The position numbers and the translations under genes were made by a program. A stretch of 64,000 nt of DNA from positions 160,001 through 224,000 of IMG/VR virus record IMGVR_UViG_3300002834_000024; one strand, given 5' to 3'. Below the pieces are notes generated by a model. The model was not told where the DNA came from. It saw nothing but the letters and a program-made list of their open reading frames with translations, and ran no database searches. The DNA is from a virus. Lineage: Duplodnaviria > Heunggongvirae > Uroviricota > Caudoviricetes. Shown here piece after piece: positions 3,001 through 60,476 of this stretch (position 1 is its first letter; every line of letters begins with the position of its first letter).

Positions 3001-6000
3001 ATCAGTAACCGAACATGAACCATTATGTTTAACAATGGATTCAGGTACAATTAAAGCCTGTAAAGTTGAAGAACGTGGAGAAGATAGGGAAGAAAAGGAT
3101 TGTTGGTGGTATTGGTTTTATTTGTGGTTAATAAATGATAATTACAAATATGAAATAGATGAAACTAAACCACCAGCTAATGGTTTACCTGATAATGTTC
3201 CATCACCATGTCCTGCTGACCCAAATAATAATGACAATTGGAAAAATGCACCTGAAGAACAGGGTATCATGTTTTGGTATTCTGACAATCTAATGGTTAA
3301 TACTGATGAACTTAGTGTTAGACAATGGAAAGATAAATTAAGGGCTACATTTATTGCACAATGTGATGATAATATGGGAATAACATTAGGTGGAACTGGT
3401 TTTGCACCACCTTATGTAACATTATTATTTGGTGCAAATTATCCAGCAAAAGGAGGACCAGATCCAAGCGACCAAGATTGGTGTGAAGATTGTAATCCAG
3501 GAACTGGCGCTGATGCTAATGACAGTGCAAGTAAATTTAAAAGCATATTAATAGATGCCTCAAATCCAAATAATGAAATGCTTGGGGAATTGGATTGTTC
3601 TAAAATAATTACACTTGGTTGTCAATATAACATACCATATAAAACATCAAAAACATCATTTTCTGGTAATGTTACAAAATTAAAATCTATATGTGAAACT
3701 GTTAATCCTGGCGAACAATTAGTTCCTGATGGTGTTGCATTAACTATAAGTCGAATACCAAAAGAACATCCTTGTGGTGTATGGAAAAATTATGAGGCTG
3801 GTGGATATTATGCTGGTGTTATGGGATTAGCTGGTTTTGGTACTGGTTGGCCAGGTGGTCTTGGTGGCATAATGAAAAAAATTCGTTCAGAAAATGGACA
3901 AACTGCTTGTGAACCAGTTGATCCAAGTATGGTAATTAAGTTTGAACAGGTATGGGATAAATTAGAAAGTATGGGATTTCCGACTGCTGCAAATGATAAT
4001 TTATTTTATTTTCATATTATTGACAAAAGATTAAAAATCTTAAAAGATTATGCAAGAGTTGCAGCATTTAAGGCTGATTATGCACAACCAGAAAAGAAAG
4101 ACCAAGATGTGACAGAATGTCATGTTCGGAACATAAATGGATTTTTTGATATATATTATCAAAACGGTCCAAACATTGATTTAAGACAAGATAAAGAGGG
4201 TACTGATTATGAATTTGTGGTTAGTGGGGTAGATGATTTTGGAATAGATCAAGACTATCATTTATCAACAACTGACAAAACATTACCTGGTGTTAGACAT
4301 ATATATTCAACTGATAACAGCAAGATTGAAGCCGAAGAATATACAATAACATTGGAACATTATCAAATTGAATATAATGCTGATGGAACAGTTTCTGGTT
4401 CAACATTAATTTGTACAGAAGAAGTTGATTACCCATTTGGTACAGCTCTTAATTATGGTTATATAACAGTTGAACCAAAAGTACAATGTCCAATAGGTGA
4501 AGCTGATGTAAATAATCCACATCCGCCTGTAAAAGTGGCAAACAGTTATTGTTATAATTTAATAGTAGATGGTACACCTTATGCAAATATTGGATTAGGT
4601 TGTTTTGATTTCTTTAAAATACGGTATAAATCTGAAGAACCAGCTTTTGGTTGGGGAGCTAAAATTAGTTTCTTTTCCAGTTTTATGAATGGTCATTCAG
4701 TACAAGGTTGGAATCTCGTAAATAGGGGCGGTGCATATCAAAAAGACCAAGTAATTTATGCTTATCCGTCAGAACCAGGTGGTAGTCCTGCATCTTTTAG
4801 AATTACTGATGTTGATCCAAATACAGGGGCGATAACAGGTATAACAATGATGTCACCAGGTGCTGGGTTTAAATGCCCAAATCCAACAGGTGGATTTTTA
4901 CAAATGTGTGTATTTACAAGTATTTCATTATATCCACCACCTGTACCAATTGAAGATAATATACCCGAAAATATATTATATTTTCCATATCCTGATTATT
5001 GGGGTGGTGATATGGGGCATTTTAACAGACCGTTATTTACCTATGATGTTATTAATGATTTACATTTAGATGAGCCAGGTCCAGCACCAAATCAAGACCT
5101 TGATATTGAAACTTGTTCTCCAATTGCTGAATGGAATAGTAAATATATAAAACCTGATTTATTAGAGGCTGAAAATGATCCTAAATGGAATGTTCAATCA
5201 ACCTTAACTGAAATTGCGCCATGGGTTAGAGTTGGTAACGAATGGCAGGAATACATTGATCCAATCACAGGTCAAAATTATAATAAATTTATGTGTGGTG
5301 GATTGCCTGCTGATGGAAGTGCCATGATTACAGATGAAACAGATGAAATTTATTTTACGATTGTACATGATAAATTTACAAATGTAAGAGCATTTTCACA
5401 ACCATTAGATTTTGGTAATTATTTAAGGGTATGTATGATAGAGTGTGATCCAGAGCCATTTGATAATTTAAAAAACTATCAAGGTGATGATACATTTGGA
5501 GGTTCGACTGCAAATACTACTAATGAGGTGACAAAGGCTGCTGGTGCATGTATGTTAAATATGTATTTAGAGGTTGTTGGTAGAAACGCATATCGTTGTT
5601 ATGGTTACACATGGACTATTCAACAGGGAAACTATGAATACAGGGAAGATAAACCAAAAGCTAATGAATTAGGTTGGGAAAATTATTATTGTAAAGATAA
5701 TAATGTTTTATTTGTTAATGACAAATATGAAAACAGTCAAAATTGTTGGATAAAATTTATTCCAACATCTGACCCATACATATATGATAGTGTTAAAATG
5801 AGAGCAAAAGAAGGTCTTGATCCACAAATATATTCTAATGAAAACAATGGTGTATTAGAAGCACCACTCATTGAAATGGATGTTAAGGATAGGGATAAAA
5901 TTGTTCGTATTTCTATGGTGGATGTAACTGGTACAGAATTTTATATGTACACAAGTGTATTTAGATGGATTGATACATGTCCATATGTTACATATTGTAT

Positions 6001-8091: not shown

Positions 8092-10869
8092 ATGGAAGAT
8101 ACATATAAAATAATGATGGCTGGTGCCAAATCCAAACAGGCTGTACCAGCTGGTACAAAACTGAATATTGGAGTTGAAAGAGATTTTCATTTACTTGAAA
8201 ATATTGATTATAAAGGGACTGTTGATACATATCAAGTATATCTTGATGAACGTGATGCTTGTACTCTTTACCGATTAATTGTTACGATTGATCCTGTTTG
8301 TACTAATGTTCTTTTTAATCCATGTTCAATTATTGTAGATAAAGATTATACAAGAATTTTTAATGAAGATGAATCATCAACACCAGCTACAGCATTAATC
8401 TATGAACCTGATAAGGGAAAAGATAAAAACCCACCTATCACATATTTTTGTGGATATGATATTTTTGATAATGTACAATTCAGAACAACAAGATTTCAAA
8501 GAGCAAAAAAGTTAGATTCATTAGTACCATTAAAACCAGACCCAGATGTTTTACCATTGGAAGATGATGAAGAAAATGAACCACTTATTCATGTTTATAC
8601 ATTAGATGATATTACTGATGTTCATACAGCAGCTAATAATTATTTAGTTGAGTATGATGGATGGATTTCATTTAAAAATCCAAATAAATTAACAATATAT
8701 CAGTTAAAATTTAATGACAAAACTGATTATGAATATGATAAAATAGCCATTGATAAAGAAGATCCAGATGATAGATTGGAAAAAGAAAGATATTTTTTAC
8801 CATTTGCATCTGAACATGCAAATTGTGATACAATAGATATGTTTCCTAAAAGAGAAATGTTTTCTTTTAACCCAATGGTTGAATATAATGTAAATCCCGA
8901 AACTTTTAAATATGAAAGATGTCAATTTTTAAAAGAAGAAAATTGGCGATATTTTATAACATATCCTTACCGAAATGATTTTGAACACTGGTTAGTTACT
9001 GGTGAAGATGGGGAAAATGGTATTCCAATTATTTTTGGAAAAAAACTGGAAGCAGATGATAAAGAAAATATTAAATTTAATGTTCCAGTTGGAAAATTTA
9101 CGACAGCATACCCACATAATTTACAAAGGTCTGATAGAATTTATTTAACAAGTGATCAAAAAGAATATACCGTATTAGATATTGAAGATAAACGTACAGC
9201 ATATTTGTGGATTGAGGGTGTAAATACATCAGATCCAGTATGGGATAATGCAAGAATAAGAAGGATTGTTAATAATACTAAATCAGATTATTATATAAGA
9301 GTATTTAGAAAATTACCTAATTGGAAATTTGAAGAAGAAGAAATTACACCTAAAAATTTTGAAGATAGATTAGAAGTAAACAATACTGAATTTACTAATT
9401 CAAAACAAGCATTATCTTATGCTACAACAATATTTACAGATAGTATAAGTCAAATTGTTTTTACAGATAGTATTAATATTAATTTATTAACAGATAATCG
9501 TTGTCGACCATTAACAGAAATGTATTTAACAATTTTGAAAAATAATGAAGGTGATAAACAGTGGACAAGTGGTTCATGGGGTTCGTATGAAACTAAATAC
9601 CAAAGATTTTGGTCTAAAAATACAGTCGGATTTGAATTAACAAATCTTAAAGAAAAAGATATGGTACAACCAACTCTTAATGATAAAAGTACCTATGAAA
9701 CAAATTATCCTTCTGTATTTTATCTACATAATCTACAAGAAGCACCTGGTGGTGAATGGCAAGAAGGTGAAGCGGGTCCACCACAGAAAATAGAAATTAT
9801 TGATAAACAAGTTGAACCAGCACAGGAACAACCTGGATACACGAAAAATATTGAATTTGTTTATTCTCCAAAAAGTTTACAAACATCTGAAAATTTAGGG
9901 GATGTTGATGATGAAGAAACAGTTGAATTTTATGGCGATATTGCTGAATGGTCGCCTGGTGATTTTCAAGAAACAGTATTAGCACCTGTTTGTTACAGAT
10001 TTAACACCACAAGTAGAGAATCATTTGAATGGGCTGATAAAATGATGGTATTTCACCAAATTTGGCAAGATGATGAAGATAGAGGGTATGATCCAGATAC
10101 AGGTGCAACTCTATTAACTGATGAATATGATCCAGAAACAGGTGATGAATCAGAGGGGCCAGATTATGAAATCCCTGAAACATTAGATGATTGTAATGAT
10201 TTGTATAGCAATGGGACAAAATTTGTTTACAGAGGTTATATGAACATTGGACCAAGACCAGAGGGATATTATCATCGAGCTCATCATAAAATACCTTTTA
10301 AATGGTATTCAAATAAATTAAGACAAAAAACAGGAAAAGAAATAAAAGTAAAAATTATGCAACCAGAAAATTGTGTTGATGAACCAATGATTGCTTTTAT
10401 TACTTATACAAAACATAGTTTAATGTCAAGAGATGTAATTAGAATACATATCAATGATAAAGAACCAAATGATCCACCATGTGATAAATTATTTAGAGTT
10501 ACTTGTCCTGCAATTGACAGAGCAAAGTTTTTAATTCCGATGGATGATGAGATTATGGCAGCTGGTAAAGATGGTATTACTATTACCCATTATCTTGAAG
10601 AAATACCAACATGGGCGCAAAAATTAGAAGATGGTAGTTATGTATGGAGAAATATATTATTAAATGATGAACAAGATAGTACACATGCAGAAGACCAACA
10701 TGAAGAATTTCCATTTACAAATGGTCATTTTTACGTTCACAATTTGATTAAATTTTATTTAAGACGACAAGGCAGAGCATTATATTATAAACCATATCTG
10801 AATGATATTGCAATGGATCCATATCACCCAGATATACATGATGAAGAACCACCAAAAGATATTTGTTAA
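8092..10869 (+). CDS. Putative structural protein (925 aa)
   Basis: Long ORF within the structural operon; TATTTAT motif at 8080. Confidence 0.6.
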   Translation: MEDTYKIMMAGAKSKQAVPAGTKLNIGVERDFHLLENIDYKGTVDTYQVYLDERDACTLYRLIVTIDPVCTNVLFNPCSIIVDKDYTRIFNEDESSTPATALIYEPDKGKDKNPPITYFCGYDIFDNVQFRTTRFQRAKKLDSLVPLKPDPDVLPLEDDEENEPLIHVYTLDDITDVHTAANNYLVEYDGWISFKNPNKLTIYQLKFNDKTDYEYDKIAIDKEDPDDRLEKERYFLPFASEHANCDTIDMFPKREMFSFNPMVEYNVNPETFKYERCQFLKEENWRYFITYPYRNDFEHWLVTGEDGENGIPIIFGKKLEADDKENIKFNVPVGKFTTAYPHNLQRSDRIYLTSDQKEYTVLDIEDKRTAYLWIEGVNTSDPVWDNARIRRIVNNTKSDYYIRVFRKLPNWKFEEEEITPKNFEDRLEVNNTEFTNSKQALSYATTIFTDSISQIVFTDSININLLTDNRCRPLTEMYLTILKNNEGDKQWTSGSWGSYETKYQRFWSKNTVGFELTNLKEKDMVQPTLNDKSTYETNYPSVFYLHNLQEAPGGEWQEGEAGPPQKIEIIDKQVEPAQEQPGYTKNIEFVYSPKSLQTSENLGDVDDEETVEFYGDIAEWSPGDFQETVLAPVCYRFNTTSRESFEWADKMMVFHQIWQDDEDRGYDPDTGATLLTDEYDPETGDESEGPDYEIPETLDDCNDLYSNGTKFVYRGYMNIGPRPEGYYHRAHHKIPFKWYSNKLRQKTGKEIKVKIMQPENCVDEPMIAFITYTKHSLMSRDVIRIHINDKEPNDPPCDKLFRVTCPAIDRAKFLIPMDDEIMAAGKDGITITHYLEEIPTWAQKLEDGSYVWRNILLNDEQDSTHAEDQHEEFPFTNGHFYVHNLIKFYLRRQGRALYYKPYLNDIAMDPYHPDIHDEEPPKDIC

Positions 10870-13970: not shown

Positions 13971-15698
13971 ATGGAATTTTATAGTCGAACATTCAACATA
14001 CATAACTTTATATGTCATTCCGTAAATCCAAATATTAGGGTTTTCGTTAATGGATCATGGGTACAAAATAAAACCACAGGTGAATATTATGGTGCTGTTA
14101 TTTCTGATGTTACAAAACCAGGATTAAATCAATCCTATAACCCATATAAAACAATTAGTGTTTTATCATATAAAGATGTTTTAATAATATATAGAAAATT
14201 AGCAAAATTTCAAAAATTTGTTAGATACCTTTGTTTAAGATGTACATTACCAACAAATGCTATTATTGATAAGTATATTGATTTGGCTGATGATTGGATG
14301 ATATATGAAGGAAATACTTTATATCCATTTACATATTATTTAACATCACAAAATATTGATTTTGATACAAATCAAGTAAGACCTGGTACTTATTATCCAA
14401 CAAGTGGAACAACACCATTTATTACTATGGTTATGAATAAATATGGCGGATTAGATACTGTTGTTTGGAAAGGTGAAACACCCGATCCAAATGATAAACG
14501 TGTTGATTTATTTATGCAAGATTATATTGATAATCCAGGTAAACTTGGAAAATTAATTACTGCTGTTTATGAATATAGAGTAACAACCATTAATACCAAT
14601 TCTTCATCATGTGATATAGCATCTGATTTGTTTGAACAAATTTCAGATGATATATTGGGAATGGCTTATAGTTTTCATAATTCCAATCATAATTGTGTGC
14701 CAAAACCAATACCAAATCCTGGTAGTTCTCCAACAAACAGTGCAAATTATAAAATGGATATATTATTATCTAATAATATTGATGATTTGGGAATATTTTT
14801 TGTACCAGCAAATGTATGGAAATGTGGAAAAAGATATGAACCTGGTGATTGTGTAACAATGAATGGGGTTGTATATACACCTTCAAGTAGTTTTGCTGGT
14901 TGGTATAATGAAAAAGCTAATAAAATCTATTTTGATGAATGTGAATTGGATGATAATGGATTTCCGACAGGTGTACTGATAATGAATGGTCATAATTATA
15001 CTAATTTTCAAGCCACAACGATGGATACAGCAACAGCTGTTACATTACAAGCAAGATGGGATGGTCAATTAGCAGGGTTAAGAGCATATCGAAAAGGTGC
15101 AACCAACTGGTTTGATGAAGAAGGTTTTTATAAAGTTGGCGTTAAATTTCATGAAGAAGCTGTTGATGAAAGTGGAAGTATAAAATACGAAAGTTTTATA
15201 ACTAATATTCAACAATCATCACCCGAAGTTGGACATGATATTATAACATATACATATATTATTGACCAATTAAGTACAAATCCTTATCCACAAACAGGTG
15301 TACAATTTAAAGATGAATATCATAGATATAAAATTGGTTCAAGTGATTTTTATTATGATTTTGGTCAAAAATCATACATTGTTTATCAAGCAAAAACATT
15401 AGGAAATTATACAACTGTATATAAAGGTAATAGTGGTATTTTTCCATTTGGTGATCCTGACAGATTTGACTATTTTCCATTATCCAAAATGGATTATTAT
15501 GAGGGATTGGCATTTGAACCAGTTATATATAAAGATGTCAATATTGACAGACAAATCAACAGAGCATGGGACAGACATTTTGCTTTGGGTGAATGTCGAA
15601 CATTTTATCAAGTTCTAAATTATCGGAATGGCGGATTTTTTGTTATCAAAGATTTAACTGATACCAATAATAAGAATGAGATAACACAAAGAAGTTAA
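13971..15698 (+). CDS. Putative structural protein; likely start ATG 13971
   Basis: Long ORF in operon; ATG 13971 follows the preceding stop; short carbohydrate-binding-like motif (WKCGKRYEPGDCVTMNGVVY). Confidence 0.6.
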   Translation: MEFYSRTFNIHNFICHSVNPNIRVFVNGSWVQNKTTGEYYGAVISDVTKPGLNQSYNPYKTISVLSYKDVLIIYRKLAKFQKFVRYLCLRCTLPTNAIIDKYIDLADDWMIYEGNTLYPFTYYLTSQNIDFDTNQVRPGTYYPTSGTTPFITMVMNKYGGLDTVVWKGETPDPNDKRVDLFMQDYIDNPGKLGKLITAVYEYRVTTINTNSSSCDIASDLFEQISDDILGMAYSFHNSNHNCVPKPIPNPGSSPTNSANYKMDILLSNNIDDLGIFFVPANVWKCGKRYEPGDCVTMNGVVYTPSSSFAGWYNEKANKIYFDECELDDNGFPTGVLIMNGHNYTNFQATTMDTATAVTLQARWDGQLAGLRAYRKGATNWFDEEGFYKVGVKFHEEAVDESGSIKYESFITNIQQSSPEVGHDIITYTYIIDQLSTNPYPQTGVQFKDEYHRYKIGSSDFYYDFGQKSYIVYQAKTLGNYTTVYKGNSGIFPFGDPDRFDYFPLSKMDYYEGLAFEPVIYKDVNIDRQINRAWDRHFALGECRTFYQVLNYRNGGFFVIKDLTDTNNKNEITQRS

Positions 15699-50699: not shown

Positions 50700-51005
50700 T
50701 TAATCTTTCATAGGTGGAATTTTTTGATATTTTTGATTGAGTTTAATTAATACTTCACGATGATTTAGTTCGTCACCAATAATTTCTTGTATTTTCTTAA
50801 TATCTTCTTTATCTGTAATATTTTTTAAAATATTCAAATAAATTTCAATAGCATCACTTTCTGATTTAATTGCGCCTTCAATGCTGGCAGCAACTTCAAG
50901 ATTTGGCATTGGATATAATTTACCATCTTGATAGTATTCATTTTCTTCTTTTAATCTTTTTAAAACATCTTTAACAATGTTTTCAATTACAAATTTATCT
51001 TTCAT
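50700..51005 (-). CDS. Ferritin/rubrerythrin-like two-helix protein
   Basis: AIKSESDAIEIY...IIGDELNH (E...ExxH). Confidence 0.6.
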   Translation of the reverse strand: MKDKFVIENIVKDVLKRLKEENEYYQDGKLYPMPNLEVAASIEGAIKSESDAIEIYLNILKNITDKEDIKKIQEIIGDELNHREVLIKLNQKYQKIPPMKD

Positions 51006-52216
51006 AGTTCATCTATATTAAAATATTTATTATCATCTGATAAAGATTTTCTTTTTTCATCTATTTCATTATCAAAATTTTCTTTATCTAAATTGTATTG
51101 TATTCCATCATATAAAGACATAAGTTCAATACTACCCTTTTTTGTATCAGCAAAAACATTAATTAATAAATCATTAAATTTTTCTACTGGTTTGGTAACT
51201 ATTTCATAAAACAGATATGGAATTACATCAACCCTTAAATTTTTGGGTAATTGGTTTTCGATTTTATACCATAATGGTATTCCAAAACGTTCATCCCATT
51301 TGCTGGCAAGTCTAAAATCTGATTTTTTAATAATATATGTTGCTTTACTCTTATCTTCTGGTAATCCATTGAATGAAATTAAGTCCAAGATAGCACGAAT
51401 GGTTTCATATAATAATGATAGAAAATTAATCCCTTTTACATTAACAACAGACTTATCATAGGTTTTAACAATAACTTCTGATATGCTGCCATTAGTTACT
51501 TCATTTTCATTTAAAATATTAGCATCTTCAAGATATAATATATATTCATTCAATGCAAGAATTTTTTTATATAGTGGTAATAACTCATCACTAATTTTAA
51601 AAATATCTTTTATATAATATTCATTAAGATTAATAATACGATTGGCTATTCCTTGCATAATACAATTTATCATTCGTCTTTTATAAATTTCATCATTTAC
51701 ACCACGAATGTCCTCAATTCCATTGAAAACAACATCTTCAACACTTTCTGGTTTTAATGGTGTCTTTAAATCAACATTTTGTATTTTATCAACCATTTCA
51801 ATGGTCAAATCAACATCATTTTTGTCAATATCAAACATTTTTTTAATAATGTTCATAACAATAAATTCTAATTGATTTTTTAATGGATTTTCTATTTCAT
51901 AACACCTTTTTAATAATTCAGATAATGTTTTTTTTAATAATGTTTCATCATTTATATCAATATCAGGAAAATTCTTTATCAAGTTGTTTTTAATCCAAGA
52001 ATAACTATTTAACAATAATCGAATAACAAATTTGTTTTCATCATCGGGTGGAAATGCAGGATGATTACCAAGTGATGTTTTATCAAGTTGAATAGCAGTA
52101 ATAATGTGTTTTGGTAGAGTTGGTTCACCAGGACCATAGTCTTCCATCAATAATCTTTTATTTTCTTTAATCACATTCAATTGATTTTGTGTTATTTTTA
52201 TTTTTTTTAGATTCAT
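51002..52216 (-). CDS. Hypothetical late protein (404 aa)
   Basis: TATTTATAAGA on the minus strand at about 52235-52245; ITQNQLNVIKE N-terminus. Confidence 0.65.
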   Translation of the reverse strand: MNLKKIKITQNQLNVIKENKRLLMEDYGPGEPTLPKHIITAIQLDKTSLGNHPAFPPDDENKFVIRLLLNSYSWIKNNLIKNFPDIDINDETLLKKTLSELLKRCYEIENPLKNQLEFIVMNIIKKMFDIDKNDVDLTIEMVDKIQNVDLKTPLKPESVEDVVFNGIEDIRGVNDEIYKRRMINCIMQGIANRIINLNEYYIKDIFKISDELLPLYKKILALNEYILYLEDANILNENEVTNGSISEVIVKTYDKSVVNVKGINFLSLLYETIRAILDLISFNGLPEDKSKATYIIKKSDFRLASKWDERFGIPLWYKIENQLPKNLRVDVIPYLFYEIVTKPVEKFNDLLINVFADTKKGSIELMSLYDGIQYNLDKENFDNEIDEKRKSLSDDNKYFNIDEL

Positions 52217-54419: not shown

Positions 54420-54515
54420 AGGAAATTCACAGCAATTTTTTAAAAATTAACAATTATTCAATTCAAAGACCGTAGGGTTGATCTATCGGGATCAACAAAC
54501 AAAAACAAATTTCCT
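54420..54515 (+). ncRNA. ACAGCAA stem RNA, unit 1
   Basis: AGGAAATT/AATTTCCT closing stem, ACAGCAA, internal GTTGATC/GATCAAC hairpin, 3' T run. Confidence 0.55.
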
Positions 54516-54527
54516 GTCTTTTTTAAA

Positions 54528-54586
54528 GGAAAACTAACAGCAATTTTTAAACATACAAATTTTAGGCGTGTATTAAAGAGTTTTCC
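54528..54586 (+). ncRNA. ACAGCAA stem RNA, unit 2
   Basis: GGAAAACT/AGTTTTCC closing stem, ACAGCAA, ATACA/TGTAT hairpin, 3' T run. Confidence 0.55.
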
Positions 54587-54645
54587 GTTTTTTTTTTGAA
54601 AATTTAGAAATAATCAATATATTTATATTTGATTAAAAATTATAT

Positions 54646-54717
54646 CGTGGGATGGAGAAGTGGTATCTCGTGGGGCCCATAACCCCAAGATCGCAGGATC
54701 GTAACCTGCTCCCGCAA
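54646..54717 (+). tRNA. tRNA-fMet (CAT), initiator type
   Basis: C1:A72 mismatch, A11:U24, GGG/CCC anticodon stem; atypical C33 and T-loop ATCGTAA. Confidence 0.9.
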
Positions 54718-54727
54718 CAAACTTATA

Positions 54728-54792
54728 GGAAAACTAACAGCAATGTTTAAAAACCATCATTCTGAATCAATGACGACATTAAAATGTTTTCC
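54728..54792 (+). ncRNA. ACAGCAA stem RNA, unit 3
   Basis: GGAAAAC/GTTTTCC closing stem, ACAGCAA, TCATT-CTGAATC-AATGA hairpin, 3' T-rich run. Confidence 0.55.
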
Positions 54793-54813
54793 GTTATTTT
54801 TTAAAAATTGAAC

Positions 54814-54842: not shown

Positions 54843-54977
54843 ATGTTTTTAGTAACAATGACATCTTATATTCAAAATTCTATCAATTTACGTGGTGGAA
54901 ATAAGAATAATAAACCCTTTGGTGATGATGAACAACCAAAAGGGCAAGACCTGTTATTGCAAAAATTTGAAACATAA
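54843..54977 (+). CDS. Attenuator leader peptide 1 (44 aa) for tRNA operon 1
   Basis: MFLVTMTSYIQNSINLRGGNKNNKPFGDDEQPKGQDLLLQKFET; core residues match the downstream tRNA set. Confidence 0.75.
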   Translation: MFLVTMTSYIQNSINLRGGNKNNKPFGDDEQPKGQDLLLQKFET

Positions 54978-55006: not shown

Positions 55007-55065
55007 GAGAACTCTCAATAACAAGGTCAAGAATAGGGCAAGTTATTGGGAGTTTTCATTTTTTT
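55007..55065 (+). terminator. Attenuator terminator 1 (competes with antiterminator 54948-54959 : 55016-55028)
   Basis: 16-bp stem GAGAACTCTCAATAAC/GTTATTGGGAGTTTTC plus T7. Confidence 0.8.
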
Positions 55066-55108
55066 AACATCCAGTTCAAAAGAGTTTGAATAATTTGGAT
55101 TACTTTTG
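55064..55108 (+). promoter_or_regulatory. Bipartite promoter TTAACATCCAG-N26-TACTTTTG just upstream of tRNA-Glu
   Basis: Conserved motif and spacing. Confidence 0.7.
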
Positions 55109-55297: not shown

Positions 55298-55374
55298 CGA
55301 AAGGTAGAGGAGTCTGGTTCCCTCGTCATCTGATGTGCAGGTGGAGTACAATGGTTCAAATCCATTACTTTCGA
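55298..55374 (+). tRNA. Atypical tRNA-like gene with a Pro-type body and an abnormal anticodon arm
   Basis: C1:G72, A73, D-loop AGTCTGGT, T-arm AATGG-TTCAAAT-CCATT; anticodon arm TCATCTG-ATGTG-CAGGTGG. Confidence 0.6.
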
Positions 55375-55381
55375 CTAATAT

Positions 55382-55457
55382 CTAGATGTATAGGAGTCTG
55401 GTTTATCTAGCTCGCCCTGGAAGCGAGATCACGTTGGTTCAAATCCAACCATCTAGA
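55382..55457 (+). tRNA. tRNA-Pro (TGG), atypical C33/A37
   Basis: CTCGC-CCTGGAA-GCGAG; C1:G72, A73. Confidence 0.85.
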
Positions 55458-55464
55458 CACAAAT

Positions 55465-55718: not shown

Positions 55719-55766
55719 ATGAAGAAGATTTTTAAAATAAAACGAAAACATATGCAGTCCCCATAG
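55719..55766 (+). CDS. Mini leader peptide 3 (MKKIFKIKRKHMQSP) before tRNA-Lys/Arg/Gln
   Basis: AT-rich leader; five Lys codons, then Arg and Gln; stop codon inside hairpin 55759-55784. Confidence 0.55.
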   Translation: MKKIFKIKRKHMQSP

Positions 55767-55799
55767 TCACTATCGGCTATGGGGTCGCTATCAGGCTAT

Positions 55800-57415: not shown

Positions 57416-58147
57416 ATGATTATGAACAAAGATAAAAAAGACTTGATAGTTGAGAGTTATAAGAACAAATTTTCCTTTTTACTTGGATATGATCCAGAAA
57501 TTGGGGGCGAATTGATAGAAGCAAACCACCATAATTTTATGTCAGAAATTATGGGACAAGATTCATTCAATAAACAACCAATGCAAAGATTAGATGAAAT
57601 AACAACTGACAGATTGTTAGGAAAACATTATGAAAATGGATTTGTTATTCTGTCAGCATCAAGGAGTGAATTATCCGATGCAGAAAATGTAACACGAAAT
57701 CAAAAACTTTTAAATATTTTACAAAGTAGTAGTAATGTTTTTTCATTTTTACCAGTCTATGGTGGATATATCGAAAATAAGGGTACAGAAAACGAACAAC
57801 GTGTTTTTGAAAGAAGTTTTGTAATCTTGAATTTTGATAAAAATGGTAATGTTGGAGATTTTGATGATTTAATGAGTTTTTCACAAGAACTTTCTAATCG
57901 TTTTCATCAAGAAACATATCTTATCAAAAAACCAGGTAATGCACCACCATATTATATTCGTACAAAAAGTGGCAAGGTAGATTGGGAATTTACTGGTGAA
58001 ATCAAAATAGATGATTTAACACAAAAATATTTTACCCGATTAAGACAACTTGGAAAACAATTTACATTTGAAGGTGTTTATATTAATCCAAAACCAATGT
58101 GTTATAGTGAAAGACATTGTAGATATTTGAAAAATGAAATATTTTAA
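57416..58147 (+). CDS. Putative S-adenosylmethionine lyase (T3 SAMase-like) with N-terminal extension
   Basis: ILSASRSELSDAEN-x-x-R, GGYIE, FERSFVI, F-HQE motifs follow the order I recall for T3 SAMase (VSAFRS-x-L-x-D-x-x-N-x-x-R, GCYRE, EEKTV, WEQD). Confidence 0.6.
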   Translation: MIMNKDKKDLIVESYKNKFSFLLGYDPEIGGELIEANHHNFMSEIMGQDSFNKQPMQRLDEITTDRLLGKHYENGFVILSASRSELSDAENVTRNQKLLNILQSSSNVFSFLPVYGGYIENKGTENEQRVFERSFVILNFDKNGNVGDFDDLMSFSQELSNRFHQETYLIKKPGNAPPYYIRTKSGKVDWEFTGEIKIDDLTQKYFTRLRQLGKQFTFEGVYINPKPMCYSERHCRYLKNEIF

Positions 58148-58189: not shown

Positions 58190-58195
58190 TATCAC

Positions 58196-58412
58196 ATATA
58201 GAGTAATCTATATTGTTTAAATTTAGTTATGAGGATGTGGACTGAATTGTGTGATGTATGTCATTGCAAAATGCACAATTCAAGGGATACAGCAAGACAG
58301 CTAACAAGGTGAATTAACATCAAAGGGTGAAAATCTCACAAACATAAGGTTGAAAGCCCGTAAAAGAATTTGATGCGTGTTGATTGTGTAGTAATTATTT
58401 TAAACTTTTTTT
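58196..58412 (+). ncRNA. Candidate ~200-nt structured ncRNA
   Basis: Own promoter, GTAA-capped 5' hairpin, closing stem, two internal domains, 3' T run. Confidence 0.45.
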
Positions 58413-58432
58413 TAAAAATTGAATTTATTGAC

Positions 58433-58440
58433 TATTTATA
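58433..58440 (+). promoter_or_regulatory. Putative late promoter TATTTATA driving leader 2
   Basis: Similar context (A/G-ACTATTTATAAT) to that before leader 1. Confidence 0.5.
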
Positions 58441-58463: not shown

Positions 58464-58574
58464 ATGAAACGATTTAGTTTACATATTAGTATTACCTTAT
58501 CAGCAATGGCGTATTGCTGGTTGGTGTCTTATTGTACACTTTTTACACATTTTGGTGGAATTGTTTCAAGTTAA
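58464..58574 (+). CDS. Attenuator leader peptide 2 (36 aa) for tRNA operon 2
   Basis: MKRFSLHISITLSAMAYCWLVSYCTLFTHFGGIVSS; residues 4-30 are exclusively the 12 amino acids of the downstream tRNAs. Confidence 0.8.
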   Translation: MKRFSLHISITLSAMAYCWLVSYCTLFTHFGGIVSS

Positions 58575-58605
58575 TATTATATGAAATAAAGATAGGAAAG
58601 ATTAT

Positions 58606-58662
58606 AATCCCCTTGAAACAAATTAGTCAAAAAGTGATGAAAAGTTTTAAGGGGATTTTTTT
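58606..58662 (+). terminator. Attenuator terminator 2 (competes with antiterminator 58561-58570 : 58612-58621)
   Basis: 14-bp stem AATCCCCTTGAAAC/GTTTTAAGGGGATT plus T run, ending 2 nt before the first tRNA. Confidence 0.82.
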
Positions 58663-58664
58663 AT

Positions 58665-58736
58665 TGTGTTATAGTTCAGTGGTAGAACAGGTGTTTCATA
58701 GGCATCAAGTCGGGGGTTCAAATCCCTCTAACGCAA
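58665..58736 (+). tRNA. tRNA-Met (CAT), elongator type (Ile2 not excluded)
   Basis: GGTGT-TTCATAG-GCATC. Confidence 0.85.
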
Positions 58737-58746
58737 CAAATATATT

Positions 58747-58831
58747 GGAGAGTAAACCTGGACATGGGTTAGGGACCGCCTGCTAAGCGGATCGTTCCGC
58801 AAGGAATTTGGATCGAGACCAATGCTCTCCG
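58747..58831 (+). tRNA. tRNA-Ser (GCT), apparent 8/4 fold, T-loop ATCGAGA
   Basis: CCGC-CTGCTAA-GCGG; long variable arm; G73. Confidence 0.85.
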
Positions 58832-58840
58832 CAAAATTTT

Positions 58841-58932
58841 GGAGGTGTAACCCTAATGTGTAAGGGACTGGTCTTGAAAACCAGCAGTAATCATGTAAAA
58901 GTGATGTGTCAGTTCGAGTCTGACCACCTCCG
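58841..58932 (+). tRNA. tRNA-Ser (TGA)
   Basis: CTGGT-CTTGAAA-ACCAG; long variable arm. Confidence 0.9.
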
Positions 58933-58944
58933 CCTTAATAATGA

Positions 58945-58956
58945 GGTCTTTGACAT
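58945..58956 (+). promoter_or_regulatory. boxA-like antitermination element
   Basis: GGTCTTTGACAT resembles rrn boxA. Confidence 0.5.
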
Positions 58957-58972
58957 GTTGGTAAAAATAAAT

Positions 58973-59060
58973 GAGAGTGCGCTAGCGTTGGAGAGCTGGG
59001 ATGGGCTGTAACCCCATTGCCTTTAACAGGGCTTAGTAGGTTCGATTCCTACCACTCTCA
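58973..59060 (+). tRNA. tRNA-Tyr (GTA)
   Basis: ATGGG-CTGTAAC-CCCAT; long variable arm. Confidence 0.9.
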
Positions 59061-59065
59061 CATAT

Positions 59066-59140
59066 GGGAATATCGTATAGGTGGTTATTGTACGCTGGAC
59101 TGAAAATCCAGAGGCTGGGGTTCAACTCCCTGTGTTCCCA
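59066..59140 (+). tRNA. tRNA-Phe (GAA)
   Basis: CTGGA-CTGAAAA-TCCAG. Confidence 0.9.
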
Positions 59141-59150
59141 CAATAAGTGA

Positions 59151-59234
59151 GGGGATGTGGCGAAATTGGTAGTACGCATCGGGTTTAAGCCCCGATTCCC
59201 AAAAGGAGTGTCGGTTCGAGTCCGACCATCCTCA
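59151..59234 (+). tRNA. tRNA-Leu (TAA)
   Basis: TCGGG-TTTAAGC-CCCGA; variable arm. Confidence 0.92.
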
Positions 59235-59242
59235 CAACAAAT

Positions 59243-59327
59243 GGGGATATGGGGGAATTGGCAGACCCGCCTGTTTTAGGAACAGGTGCAGTAATGCGTG
59301 TGAGTTCGAGTCTCACTATCCCTACCA
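59243..59327 (+). tRNA. tRNA-Leu (TAG)
   Basis: CCTGT-TTTAGGA-ACAGG; encoded CCA. Confidence 0.93.
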
Positions 59328-59330
59328 AAT

Positions 59331-59401
59331 GTTCCATTAGCATAATGGTAGTGTACTGGTCTGCAAAACCAGGTGTATCCGTTCAATTCGGATATGGAAC
59401 T
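59331..59401 (+). tRNA. tRNA-Cys (GCA)
   Basis: CTGGT-CTGCAAA-ACCAG; U73. Confidence 0.92.
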
Positions 59402-59415
59402 CAAAAAATATTAAA

Positions 59416-59488
59416 GGGGCTGTCATATAGTTGGCTATTATGATAGATTTGCAATCTATTCACTGGGGTTCGAGACCCCACAGCTCCA
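59416..59488 (+). tRNA. tRNA-Ala (TGC)
   Basis: ATAGA-TTTGCAA-TCTAT; G3:U70. Confidence 0.92.
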
Positions 59489-59494
59489 CAAAAA

Positions 59495-59568
59495 GTTTCT
59501 GTATTTCAGTGGTTTAGAATGTTACTCTTACAAGGTAAAGGTCGTTGGTTCAAATCCAACCAGAAACA
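59495..59568 (+). tRNA. tRNA-Val (TAC)
   Basis: TTACT-CTTACAA-GGTAA. Confidence 0.92.
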
Positions 59569-59578
59569 CTCATAACAT

Positions 59579-59651
59579 TGGCACGTATATCAATGGTCAG
59601 ATTACCACCCTGATAAGGTGGGGGTTACTGGTTCAAGTCCAGTCGTGCCAA
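59579..59651 (+). tRNA. tRNA-Ile (GAT)
   Basis: CCACC-CTGATAA-GGTGG. Confidence 0.92.
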
Positions 59652-59666
59652 CTAAATTTTTTATAT

Positions 59667-59737
59667 AGGTACATGGTGTAATGGTAGCATTTTGGTCTCC
59701 AAAACCAACGATCAGGGTTCAAATCCTTGTGTACCTG
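59667..59737 (+). tRNA. tRNA-Trp (CCA)
   Basis: TTGGT-CTCCAAA-ACCAA; G73. Confidence 0.92.
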
Positions 59738-59743
59738 CTACAT

Positions 59744-59817
59744 GGTATCGCTGGTGTAATGGTTAGCATGGCACATTGTGAGTGTGTAGGTTAGGGGTTC
59801 AAGTCCCCTGCGATACC
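59744..59817 (+). tRNA. tRNA-His (GTG)
   Basis: GCACA-TTGTGAG-TGTGT; G-1:C73. Confidence 0.92.
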
Positions 59818-59823
59818 CAAATA

Positions 59824-59855
59824 TTTGGAAAACAATTTTAAAAACAGTATTTTTG
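59824..59855 (+). promoter_or_regulatory. Canonical Bacteroidota promoter TTTG-N20-TATTTTTG
   Basis: Matches the -33/-7 consensus and spacing, upstream of the lipoprotein gene. Confidence 0.65.
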
Positions 59856-60385: not shown

Positions 60386-60457
60386 GCTTCTGTAGTTCAA
60401 TGGCTAGAACATCTGCTTTGTAACCAGAAAATATCAGTTCGATTCTGATCAGAAGCT
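60386..60457 (+). tRNA. tRNA-Thr (TGT)
   Basis: TCTGC-TTTGTAA-CCAGA (31:39 mismatch); acceptor GCTTCTG/CAGAAGC. Confidence 0.88.
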
Positions 60458-60476
60458 CTCAATTTTTACCAACAAA

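Follow-up and report, generated by a model that had tools for sequence, protein, structure and literature searches.

Why phages carry arrays of tRNA genes has been an open question for more than 50 years (PMC10264068), with codon compensation set against the replacement of destroyed tRNAs. The locus described here raises the question of how such an array might be controlled: a short ORF, which we call leader 2, stands with a predicted terminator directly before a phage tRNA operon, and its regulatory codons are cognate to tRNA genes rather than to enzymes. Judging from the sequence and from computed folds, we consider it very probable that leader 2 is a ribosome-mediated transcription attenuator that places the tRNA operon under feedback control.

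The stretch of DNA that was analysed, 64,000 nucleotides (64 kb) and hereafter the window, lies inside a virus record of 274,786 bases with 29% G+C, and a 347-kb contig encodes proteins identical to those of its phage. The phage occurs in termite-gut metagenomes, with no RNA data set listed among them, and encodes a terminase as well as a major capsid protein of the T4 type; the closest cultured capsids are only ~40% identical, and blastn against INPHARED with the tRNA block returned single tRNA matches only. A second DNA run has an identical leader 2 at low depth and adds no variants. Three sigma70-type genes (sigma70-r2) are present across the phage genome, and a search of that genome and two complete relatives gave no match to the beta subunit of multi-subunit RNA polymerase, which together with the T4-type capsid makes transcription by the host polymerase in the cytoplasm plausible. 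The host is probably a member of the Bacteroidota, because in 25 of 26 copies genome-wide a TAACATCCAG box has TAnnTTTG, which is the Bacteroidota housekeeping -7 box (PMC9723704), 26-27 nt downstream of it, and because gene starts throughout the genome are A-rich and lack a G-rich ribosome-binding signal. Since leader-peptide attenuation has been reported as likely in Flavobacterium, of the Bacteroidota (PMC9723704), such a host could plausibly run a switch of this kind. Another motif, TATTTAT, is most frequent 20-29 nt ahead of ORF starts across the genome, those of virion-type genes among them; a reading of it as TATTTATA, which reverses the T4 late promoter TATAAATA, is disfavoured, as this sense-strand peak favours TATTTAT as written. 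The TAACATCCAG boxes of the window are at 55065, 56395, 57319, 58145, and 62360, and the TAACATCCAG-TAnnTTTG class looks as if an activator box, comparable to the T4 MotA box, stood in place of the -33 element in a Bacteroidota promoter.

The leader 2 locus consists of the following elements:

58431..58440, plus strand: TATTTAT(A) motif, candidate phage-sigma promoter for leader 2, 31 nt upstream of the ATG
58464..58574, plus strand: leader 2 ORF, 36 codons, with a start context in the top 1.1% of the genome's ATGs
58465..58474, plus strand: segment 1, the start-codon region, a candidate anti-antiterminator if no ribosome loads; pairs with 58559-58568
58473..58553, plus strand: sensor run, codons 4-30, with all 12 block amino acids and no others
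58501..58519, plus strand: mid-leader hairpin, candidate RNA polymerase pause signal (-11.4, z -3.0)
58538..58570, plus strand: antiterminator 5' strand, core 58561-58570; pairs with 58612-58645
58606..58662, plus strand: predicted intrinsic terminator, 14-bp stem 58606-58619/58644-58657, T7 at 58656-58662
58665..59818, plus strand: tRNA block 2, with Met-CAT, Ser-GCT, Ser-TGA, Tyr, Phe, Leu-TAA, and Leu-TAG in its first half and Cys, Ala, Val, Ile-GAT, Trp, and His in its second
60386..60458, plus strand: tRNA-Thr(TGT), 570 nt past block 2 and behind a 168-aa ORF

The sensor run draws on M, S, Y, F, L, C, A, V, I, W, H, and T, each represented by one to four codons, and excludes E, N, P, G, D, K, R, and Q. 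An earlier note on this DNA had singled out these 27 codons as coming only from the amino acids of the block, and re-reading of the sequence confirms both residues and codons. Its chance estimate of about 1e-7 is arithmetically sound, given that the set makes up 54.8% of the proteome (0.548 to the 27th power being 9e-8), but the underlying null ignores the U-rich bias: shuffling the run's own 81 bases yields an all-in-set run at 8e-5 and an all-in-set run with all 12 residues at 5e-6. A six-frame search of the genome recovered seven in-set runs of at least 27 residues, and only that of leader 2 contains all 12. The extension of the match to isoacceptors, for which the codons are as that note listed them, carries no weight as evidence on its own (p 0.27-0.80): the absence of ATA among three Ile codons has p=0.27, the use of both Ser boxes 0.80, and that of both Leu boxes 0.71. 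The claimed 12-amino-acid operon holds for the set of tRNAs, with the exception that tRNA-Thr lies outside the block proper; being placed 570 nt on and behind an ORF for which there is a separate TAnnTTTG promoter at 59848, it would belong to block 2 only by read-through. Within the block, tRNA-Met starts at 58665, and one TAnnTTTG match falls inside tRNA-Ala at 59444. Neither ARAGORN nor Rfam reported the Ser-GCT gene (about 58747-58831), whose sequence gives a cloverleaf that has GCT in its loop.

The RNA helices form the other part of the evidence. The terminator (-21.2 kcal/mol, z -4.8) begins 31 nt past the stop codon and ends 2 nt before tRNA-Met, and no promoter motif of the three classes is found in the gap between them. 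Its 5' arm is also complementary to the 3' end of the leader ORF: 58561-58570 stops 1 nt short of the TAA and is the reverse complement of 58612-58621 without a mismatch. The share of genome windows with a perfect inverted match of 10 nt at such range is 0.8%. The earlier note had recognized this 10-nt complement, and the pairing in fact extends to an interrupted helix of up to 30 bp (58538-58570/58612-58645; -23.3 kcal/mol, z -3.05). Measured against base shuffles, the duplex of leader 2 and terminator has p 0.009; against synonymous recoding it has p 0.083, which is not significant. Segment 1 can form a 10-bp helix (-11.3 kcal/mol, shuffle p 0.03) that is a minor state in equilibrium folds, and the mid-leader hairpin is a candidate for the RNA polymerase pause signal. 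We then folded transcripts at equilibrium under a ribosome mask, with the footprint assumed to reach 9 nt beyond the A-site codon. For transcript ends of 58635-58650, the antiterminator is dominant with A-site codons 2-30 and lost from 31, a boundary that depends on footprint and transcript end and that coincides, at codon 30/31, with the end of the matched codon run. With the transcript ending at 58652, the switch moves to about codon 23-25, and at 58656 the full-length terminator wins at equilibrium under any mask. Thus, in these models any control exerted by leader 2 must be kinetic.

Upstream of block 2 lies a sister arrangement:

54843..54977, plus strand: sister leader 1, core 54891-54950 (R, G, N, K, P, D, E, Q), antiterminator strand near 54948-54960
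55009..55066, plus strand: leader 1 terminator
55065-55108: box-type promoter, able to bypass the leader 1 terminator; its TAACATCCAG copy at 55065 is kept in L134
55119..56058, plus strand: tRNA block 1, with Glu, Asn, Pro, Gly, Asp, Pro, Lys, Arg-ACG, and Gln

Block 1 serves the eight amino acids complementary to the 12 of block 2. ARAGORN also calls a Thr gene at 55298; with its poor fold and without an Rfam match, this is no normal tRNA, and it was dropped from block 1 by hand but kept in the blind scan described below. Homologs of leader 1 are found in the relatives L134 and G004. That of L134 shows a mismatch, with a Gly codon and no Gln codon before a block that seems to contain a Gln-like tRNA (by eye) and no Gly.

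Relatives were reached through a 404-aa protein encoded at 51002-52216. The most informative comparison for leader 2 is with G004 (IMGVR_UViG_3300009784_000001, 360 kb), the sole match in a leader-2 pattern search. Its ortholog (L299:14387-14497) has 36 codons and the same length, start, and stop, with the spacing kept as well, and the last 14 nt of the leader 2 ORF are identical in it. The peptides share 8-11/36 residues (8/36 ungapped, 31% when aligned). The antiterminator core helix is kept while the lower stem of the terminator (z -5.1) has been rebuilt, which is the conservation of pairing that the earlier note had named as its test. An 8-bp mid-leader hairpin (-9.2 kcal/mol) occupies the equivalent place, and the segment 1 helix is kept with a G-U to A-U change (p 0.12). 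Masked folding of the G004 leader switches at the same codon as that of leader 2, so that the stall-dependent choice of helices proposed earlier is reproduced by modelling in both phages. Behind the ortholog lie Ser-GCT, Tyr, Ser-TGA, Phe, Leu-TAG, Cys, Thr, and Ala, then Ile and His, with tRNA-Thr here inside the block. Within this set fall 25/27 core residues; the two exceptions are Gly codons, and the block has no tRNA-Gly. M, V, and W are missing from the core as well as from the block, and the single Leu codon of the core is CTT, Leu-TAA being absent from the block. A third block of G004, with Gln, Gly, and Trp, stands behind a Q/G/W-rich leader (L328:752-844), and the core of its leader 1 is without Q and G, both present in leader 1 of the window. 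Judged by the joint absence of M, V, and W, by the Q/G/W leader, and by the absence of Q and G from leader 1, codons follow tRNA genes between operons. The anatomy of leader 2, its mutually exclusive helices, their conservation, and this codon-tRNA covariation are what the sequences and computed folds show.

The same relation is seen in other relatives. In G031, four leaders share out all 20 amino acids as C,V,L; F,E,D,A; P,K,G,Q,Y,T; and S,H,W,I,M,N,R, and the fourth leader, looked up after the pattern had been fixed, matches the S,H,W,I,M,N,R block. In G001, a block mixing the two sets (T, Y, E, H, D, N, Q, P, L) follows a leader that holds all nine. Over 16 hand-collected leader-block pairs, chosen by eye, the matched score is 48.3 versus 10.5 +/- 4.4. 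When a single leader stands for each homology group, none of the 362,880 assignments scores better than the true one, whether the window's genome is included or left out; the leaders compared come from one phage clade and are not fully independent. In this hand-collected set, TATTTAT is found upstream of 12/16 leaders, a terminator hairpin followed by a T-rich tract is present in 16/16, and the distance from stop to hairpin is 21-34 nt in 15/16. For 13/16 leaders, synonymous recodings give a weaker duplex with the terminator (p<0.05), leader 2 not being among them. As the 16 pairs had been chosen by eye, we ran a scan of the relatives that was blind to composition and set block limits automatically, requiring TATTTAT upstream, 15-50 codons, a stop 10-60 nt before a terminator, and a terminator <=150 nt from a tRNA. 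It returned 13 leaders, of which 11 ranked their own block first, with a score of 39.9 versus 8.9 +/- 3.9 that was reached by 0/200,000 permutations. In the gut relatives G007, G012, G014, G015, G021, G024, and G025, no clear leader was seen in the stretches examined, so that the design is documented for part of the clade. A Ser-GCT pattern search found other phages without clear leaders, and a promoter-motif scan of viral contigs gave scattered single matches.

Leader 2 thus combines a usable short ORF, cognate codons, a predicted intrinsic terminator, and, by computation, a ribosome-dependent and mutually exclusive antiterminator. From this combination we infer that the ORF is translated in coupling with transcription, that the polymerase pauses and can read through, and what the trigger may be. 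The TATTTAT motif at 58433 is probably a phage-sigma promoter, from which host RNA polymerase, directed by the phage sigma, would transcribe leader 2 with a ribosome trailing. If Met, Ser, Tyr, Phe, Leu, Cys, Ala, Val, Ile, Trp, His, and Thr codons are promptly decoded, the ribosome would pass codon 30 and cover 58561-58570; the terminator would then form and no tRNAs would be made. If the ribosome is delayed in codons 4-30, the 3' end of the leader would pair with the 5' arm of the terminator, and the polymerase would read into the 13-14 tRNA genes. Since the sensor codons are decoded by the very tRNAs produced, synthesis of these tRNAs would close a negative feedback loop. Leader 1 would exert equivalent control for the other eight amino acids.

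As each amino acid has only one to four codons in the sensor, the switch should respond best to long stalls, such as follow the loss of a tRNA species or broad depletion, and less to mild limitation; in theory, few regulatory codons give low sensitivity (PMC1183508). The sensor cannot distinguish the causes of stalling. Loss or shortage of functional tRNA appears to be the more sensible trigger, given this low sensitivity to mild limitation and given that extra tRNA is no cure for amino-acid starvation. Host anticodon nucleases are known to deplete tRNA, and phage tRNAs are known to remedy this (PMC10264068, PMC11464382, PMC11555353). It is conceivable, and we advance it tentatively at somewhat less than even confidence, that the two to four leaders of a phage together provide codon-resolved surveillance of the whole tRNA pool, with the 20 amino acids divided among them, as an inducible counter-defence. 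The loss of a tRNA species, for instance to host anticodon nucleases, would then stall the ribosome and switch on only the block that holds the replacement, and the switch would shut itself off once the new tRNAs act.

The codon match and the helices have also to be weighed against explanations other than tRNA-specific attenuation. The leader might be an attenuator that gauges general translation speed, as altered by host shut-off, ribosome shortage, or antibiotics; its codon match would be real, yet it would open upon any slowdown and thus be a stage switch and no tRNA-specific sensor. The low sensitivity to a single tRNA species that theory predicts for so few codons per amino acid (PMC1183508) would suit such a gauge, as would the dominance of the antiterminator in short transcripts with no ribosome at all (0.65-0.82 on a scale with a maximum of about 0.83). 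However, it needs no codon match, yet the codons follow the tRNA genes between operons (W, Q, and G in G004) and the sister leaders of one genome use disjoint amino-acid sets, so that we regard it as unlikely. The position of the hairpin 2 nt before tRNA-Met, at the site of 5' processing, recalls a different role, in which the leader would act after or beside termination, with the ribosome's position steering the processing or stability of the tRNA precursor or a Rho-type termination, and the hairpin being a processing or protection signal. A related K/R-rich mini-ORF before tRNA-Lys indeed has a hairpin without a U tract. Here, on the other hand, the hairpin is followed by T7, as it is by a T-rich tract in all 16 leaders; the alternative pairing strikes its 5' arm in the manner of an attenuator; and the gap from hairpin to first tRNA varies among leaders from 9 to over 100 nt. 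Such a role is therefore very improbable.

The composition of leader 2 bears on a further alternative, namely a small hydrophobic peptide of membrane or signal type followed by an ordinary terminator, with the match arising from U-rich codons and the tRNAs from leaky read-through. Its peptide does begin with MKR, and the residues that come next are apolar (hydropathy 1.46 over the best 19 residues), and the other long in-set runs of the genome occur in membrane segments and antisense frames. Yet the Ser/Thr/Gly-rich ortholog in G004 has a hydropathy of 0.75 and the hydrophobic segment is not conserved, while the RNA helices persist at 8/36 identical residues. The leader 2 peptide matches no Pfam family, and among the leaders compared, hydrophilic ones stand before hydrophilic tRNA sets and mixed ones before mixed sets. 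This leaves the peptide a slender chance at best. T-box riboswitches share with leader 2 a choice between terminator and antiterminator that is tied to tRNA status, and the tRNA-related context of this pair might suggest one. They differ in that they bind uncharged tRNA directly and need no ORF; the conserved ORF with 12 kinds of codons would be superfluous to a single-specifier T-box, and the region has no Rfam match at the gathering threshold or at E<=5, the T-box model with its stem I, specifier loop, and antiterminator bulge included. A T-box-like element is hence barely credible.

Ribosome-mediated attenuation, which we thus prefer for leader 2, is known in kind. The multivalent thrL and ilvGMEDA leaders and pheM, which precedes pheST, are examples of attenuators. 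With the leader-peptide attenuators of amino-acid biosynthetic operons, trpL, hisL, and pheL (PMC1183508, PMC3082878), leader 2 shares a short ORF with regulatory codons, exclusive antiterminator and terminator helices, a U tract, and predicted read-through upon slow decoding; sequences that are candidates for a 1:2 helix and a pause hairpin are present in it. Unlike them, it is encoded by a phage and would control tRNAs rather than enzymes; it samples 12 amino acids with one to four codons each, whereas classical leaders sample one to three amino acids with runs of codons. It also departs from classical attenuators in having its antiterminator strand within the 3' end of the ORF and sister leaders that divide the 20 amino acids. 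A comparable logic is seen in the trn operon of Anabaena PCC 7120, a 26-gene tRNA array that TrcR represses and translational stress induces (PMC8421152, PMC10272220). Both are mobile tRNA arrays that would stay off until translation is impaired, but the Anabaena operon uses a protein repressor at the promoter, with no codon specificity, and PMC8421152 uses neither the word attenuation nor the word leader. Phage tRNAs also counter tRNA-cleaving defences, as those of T5 do against PARIS and retrons and as do anticodon-loop variants (PMC11464382, PMC11555353, PMC10264068). These counter-defence tRNAs are similar in that the phage array is a reserve against the loss of host tRNA; the studies concern tRNA action, and no demand-sensing switch was seen in their abstracts. 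An attenuator of tRNA genes was not found in the literature searched, whose coverage is partial, with most subscription journals outside it. The tRNA target of leader 2, its place in a phage, its 12-way input, and the way in which the leaders divide the code are, to our knowledge, new.

If leader 2 acts as proposed, attenuation would extend from amino-acid enzymes to tRNA genes, with a natural 12-input sensor of tRNA supply. A block-by-block switch set by decoding speed would make the phage tRNAs an on-demand reserve and would explain the sorting of their genes into blocks. Whichever stress opens the switch would then be what the phage tRNAs are for, which makes the old question directly testable. 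Should the more tentative surveillance reading also hold, tRNA genes would regulate their own transcription through a translated leader as an inducible counter-defence.

Several further features of the region deserve mention. Between the two tRNA blocks, 57416-58147 encodes an S-adenosylmethionine lyase family protein (PF23780, E 3.5e-7), likely anti-restriction, with homologs in other contexts; it has no relative among the viral contigs and is a poor anchor for finding related loci. Behind a box promoter, 58195-58420 is a non-coding stretch that ends in a long-range stem and a T run; it has no Rfam match and a fold z of only -1.4, and its transcript could run into leader 2. In block 1, the tRNA-like element at 55298-55375, after tRNA-Asn, has an irregular anticodon arm and recurs at the same position in G004 (L299:12395-12466). 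A second tRNA-Pro(TGG) is found at 55382-55458, L134:1138-1214, and L299:12633-12708, with C instead of U at position 33 in the window and G004. The K/R-rich mini-ORF of 12-15 codons before tRNA-Lys lies at 55719-55790 in the window, at L299:12762-12800, and on the minus strand of L134, where tRNA-Lys is at 1028. This mini-ORF is conserved in the three phages, and at its stop it runs into a strong hairpin (-20 to -26 kcal/mol) that lacks a U tract; it is possibly a second-level or processing switch. Outside the window, a tRNA-Arg(TCT) and a third CAT tRNA are placed directly behind protein genes (G000:C1:235336 and 237769), with no leader or terminator seen at either. Around the tRNA-Met at 54646, repeated stem-loops with ACAGCAAT occupy 54429-54800, and similar ACAGCA elements flank tRNAs of G004 (L299 about 8330-8390, 8775, and 14210-14350). 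Finally, the minus strand of L134:3250-3550 carries five 36-nt direct repeats with a 66-nt period and 30-nt spacers, downstream of a gene for a 417-aa Cas12f/TnpB-like protein (3847-5100; PF07282) and beside a tRNA-Met, forming a compact CRISPR-like locus in a phage.
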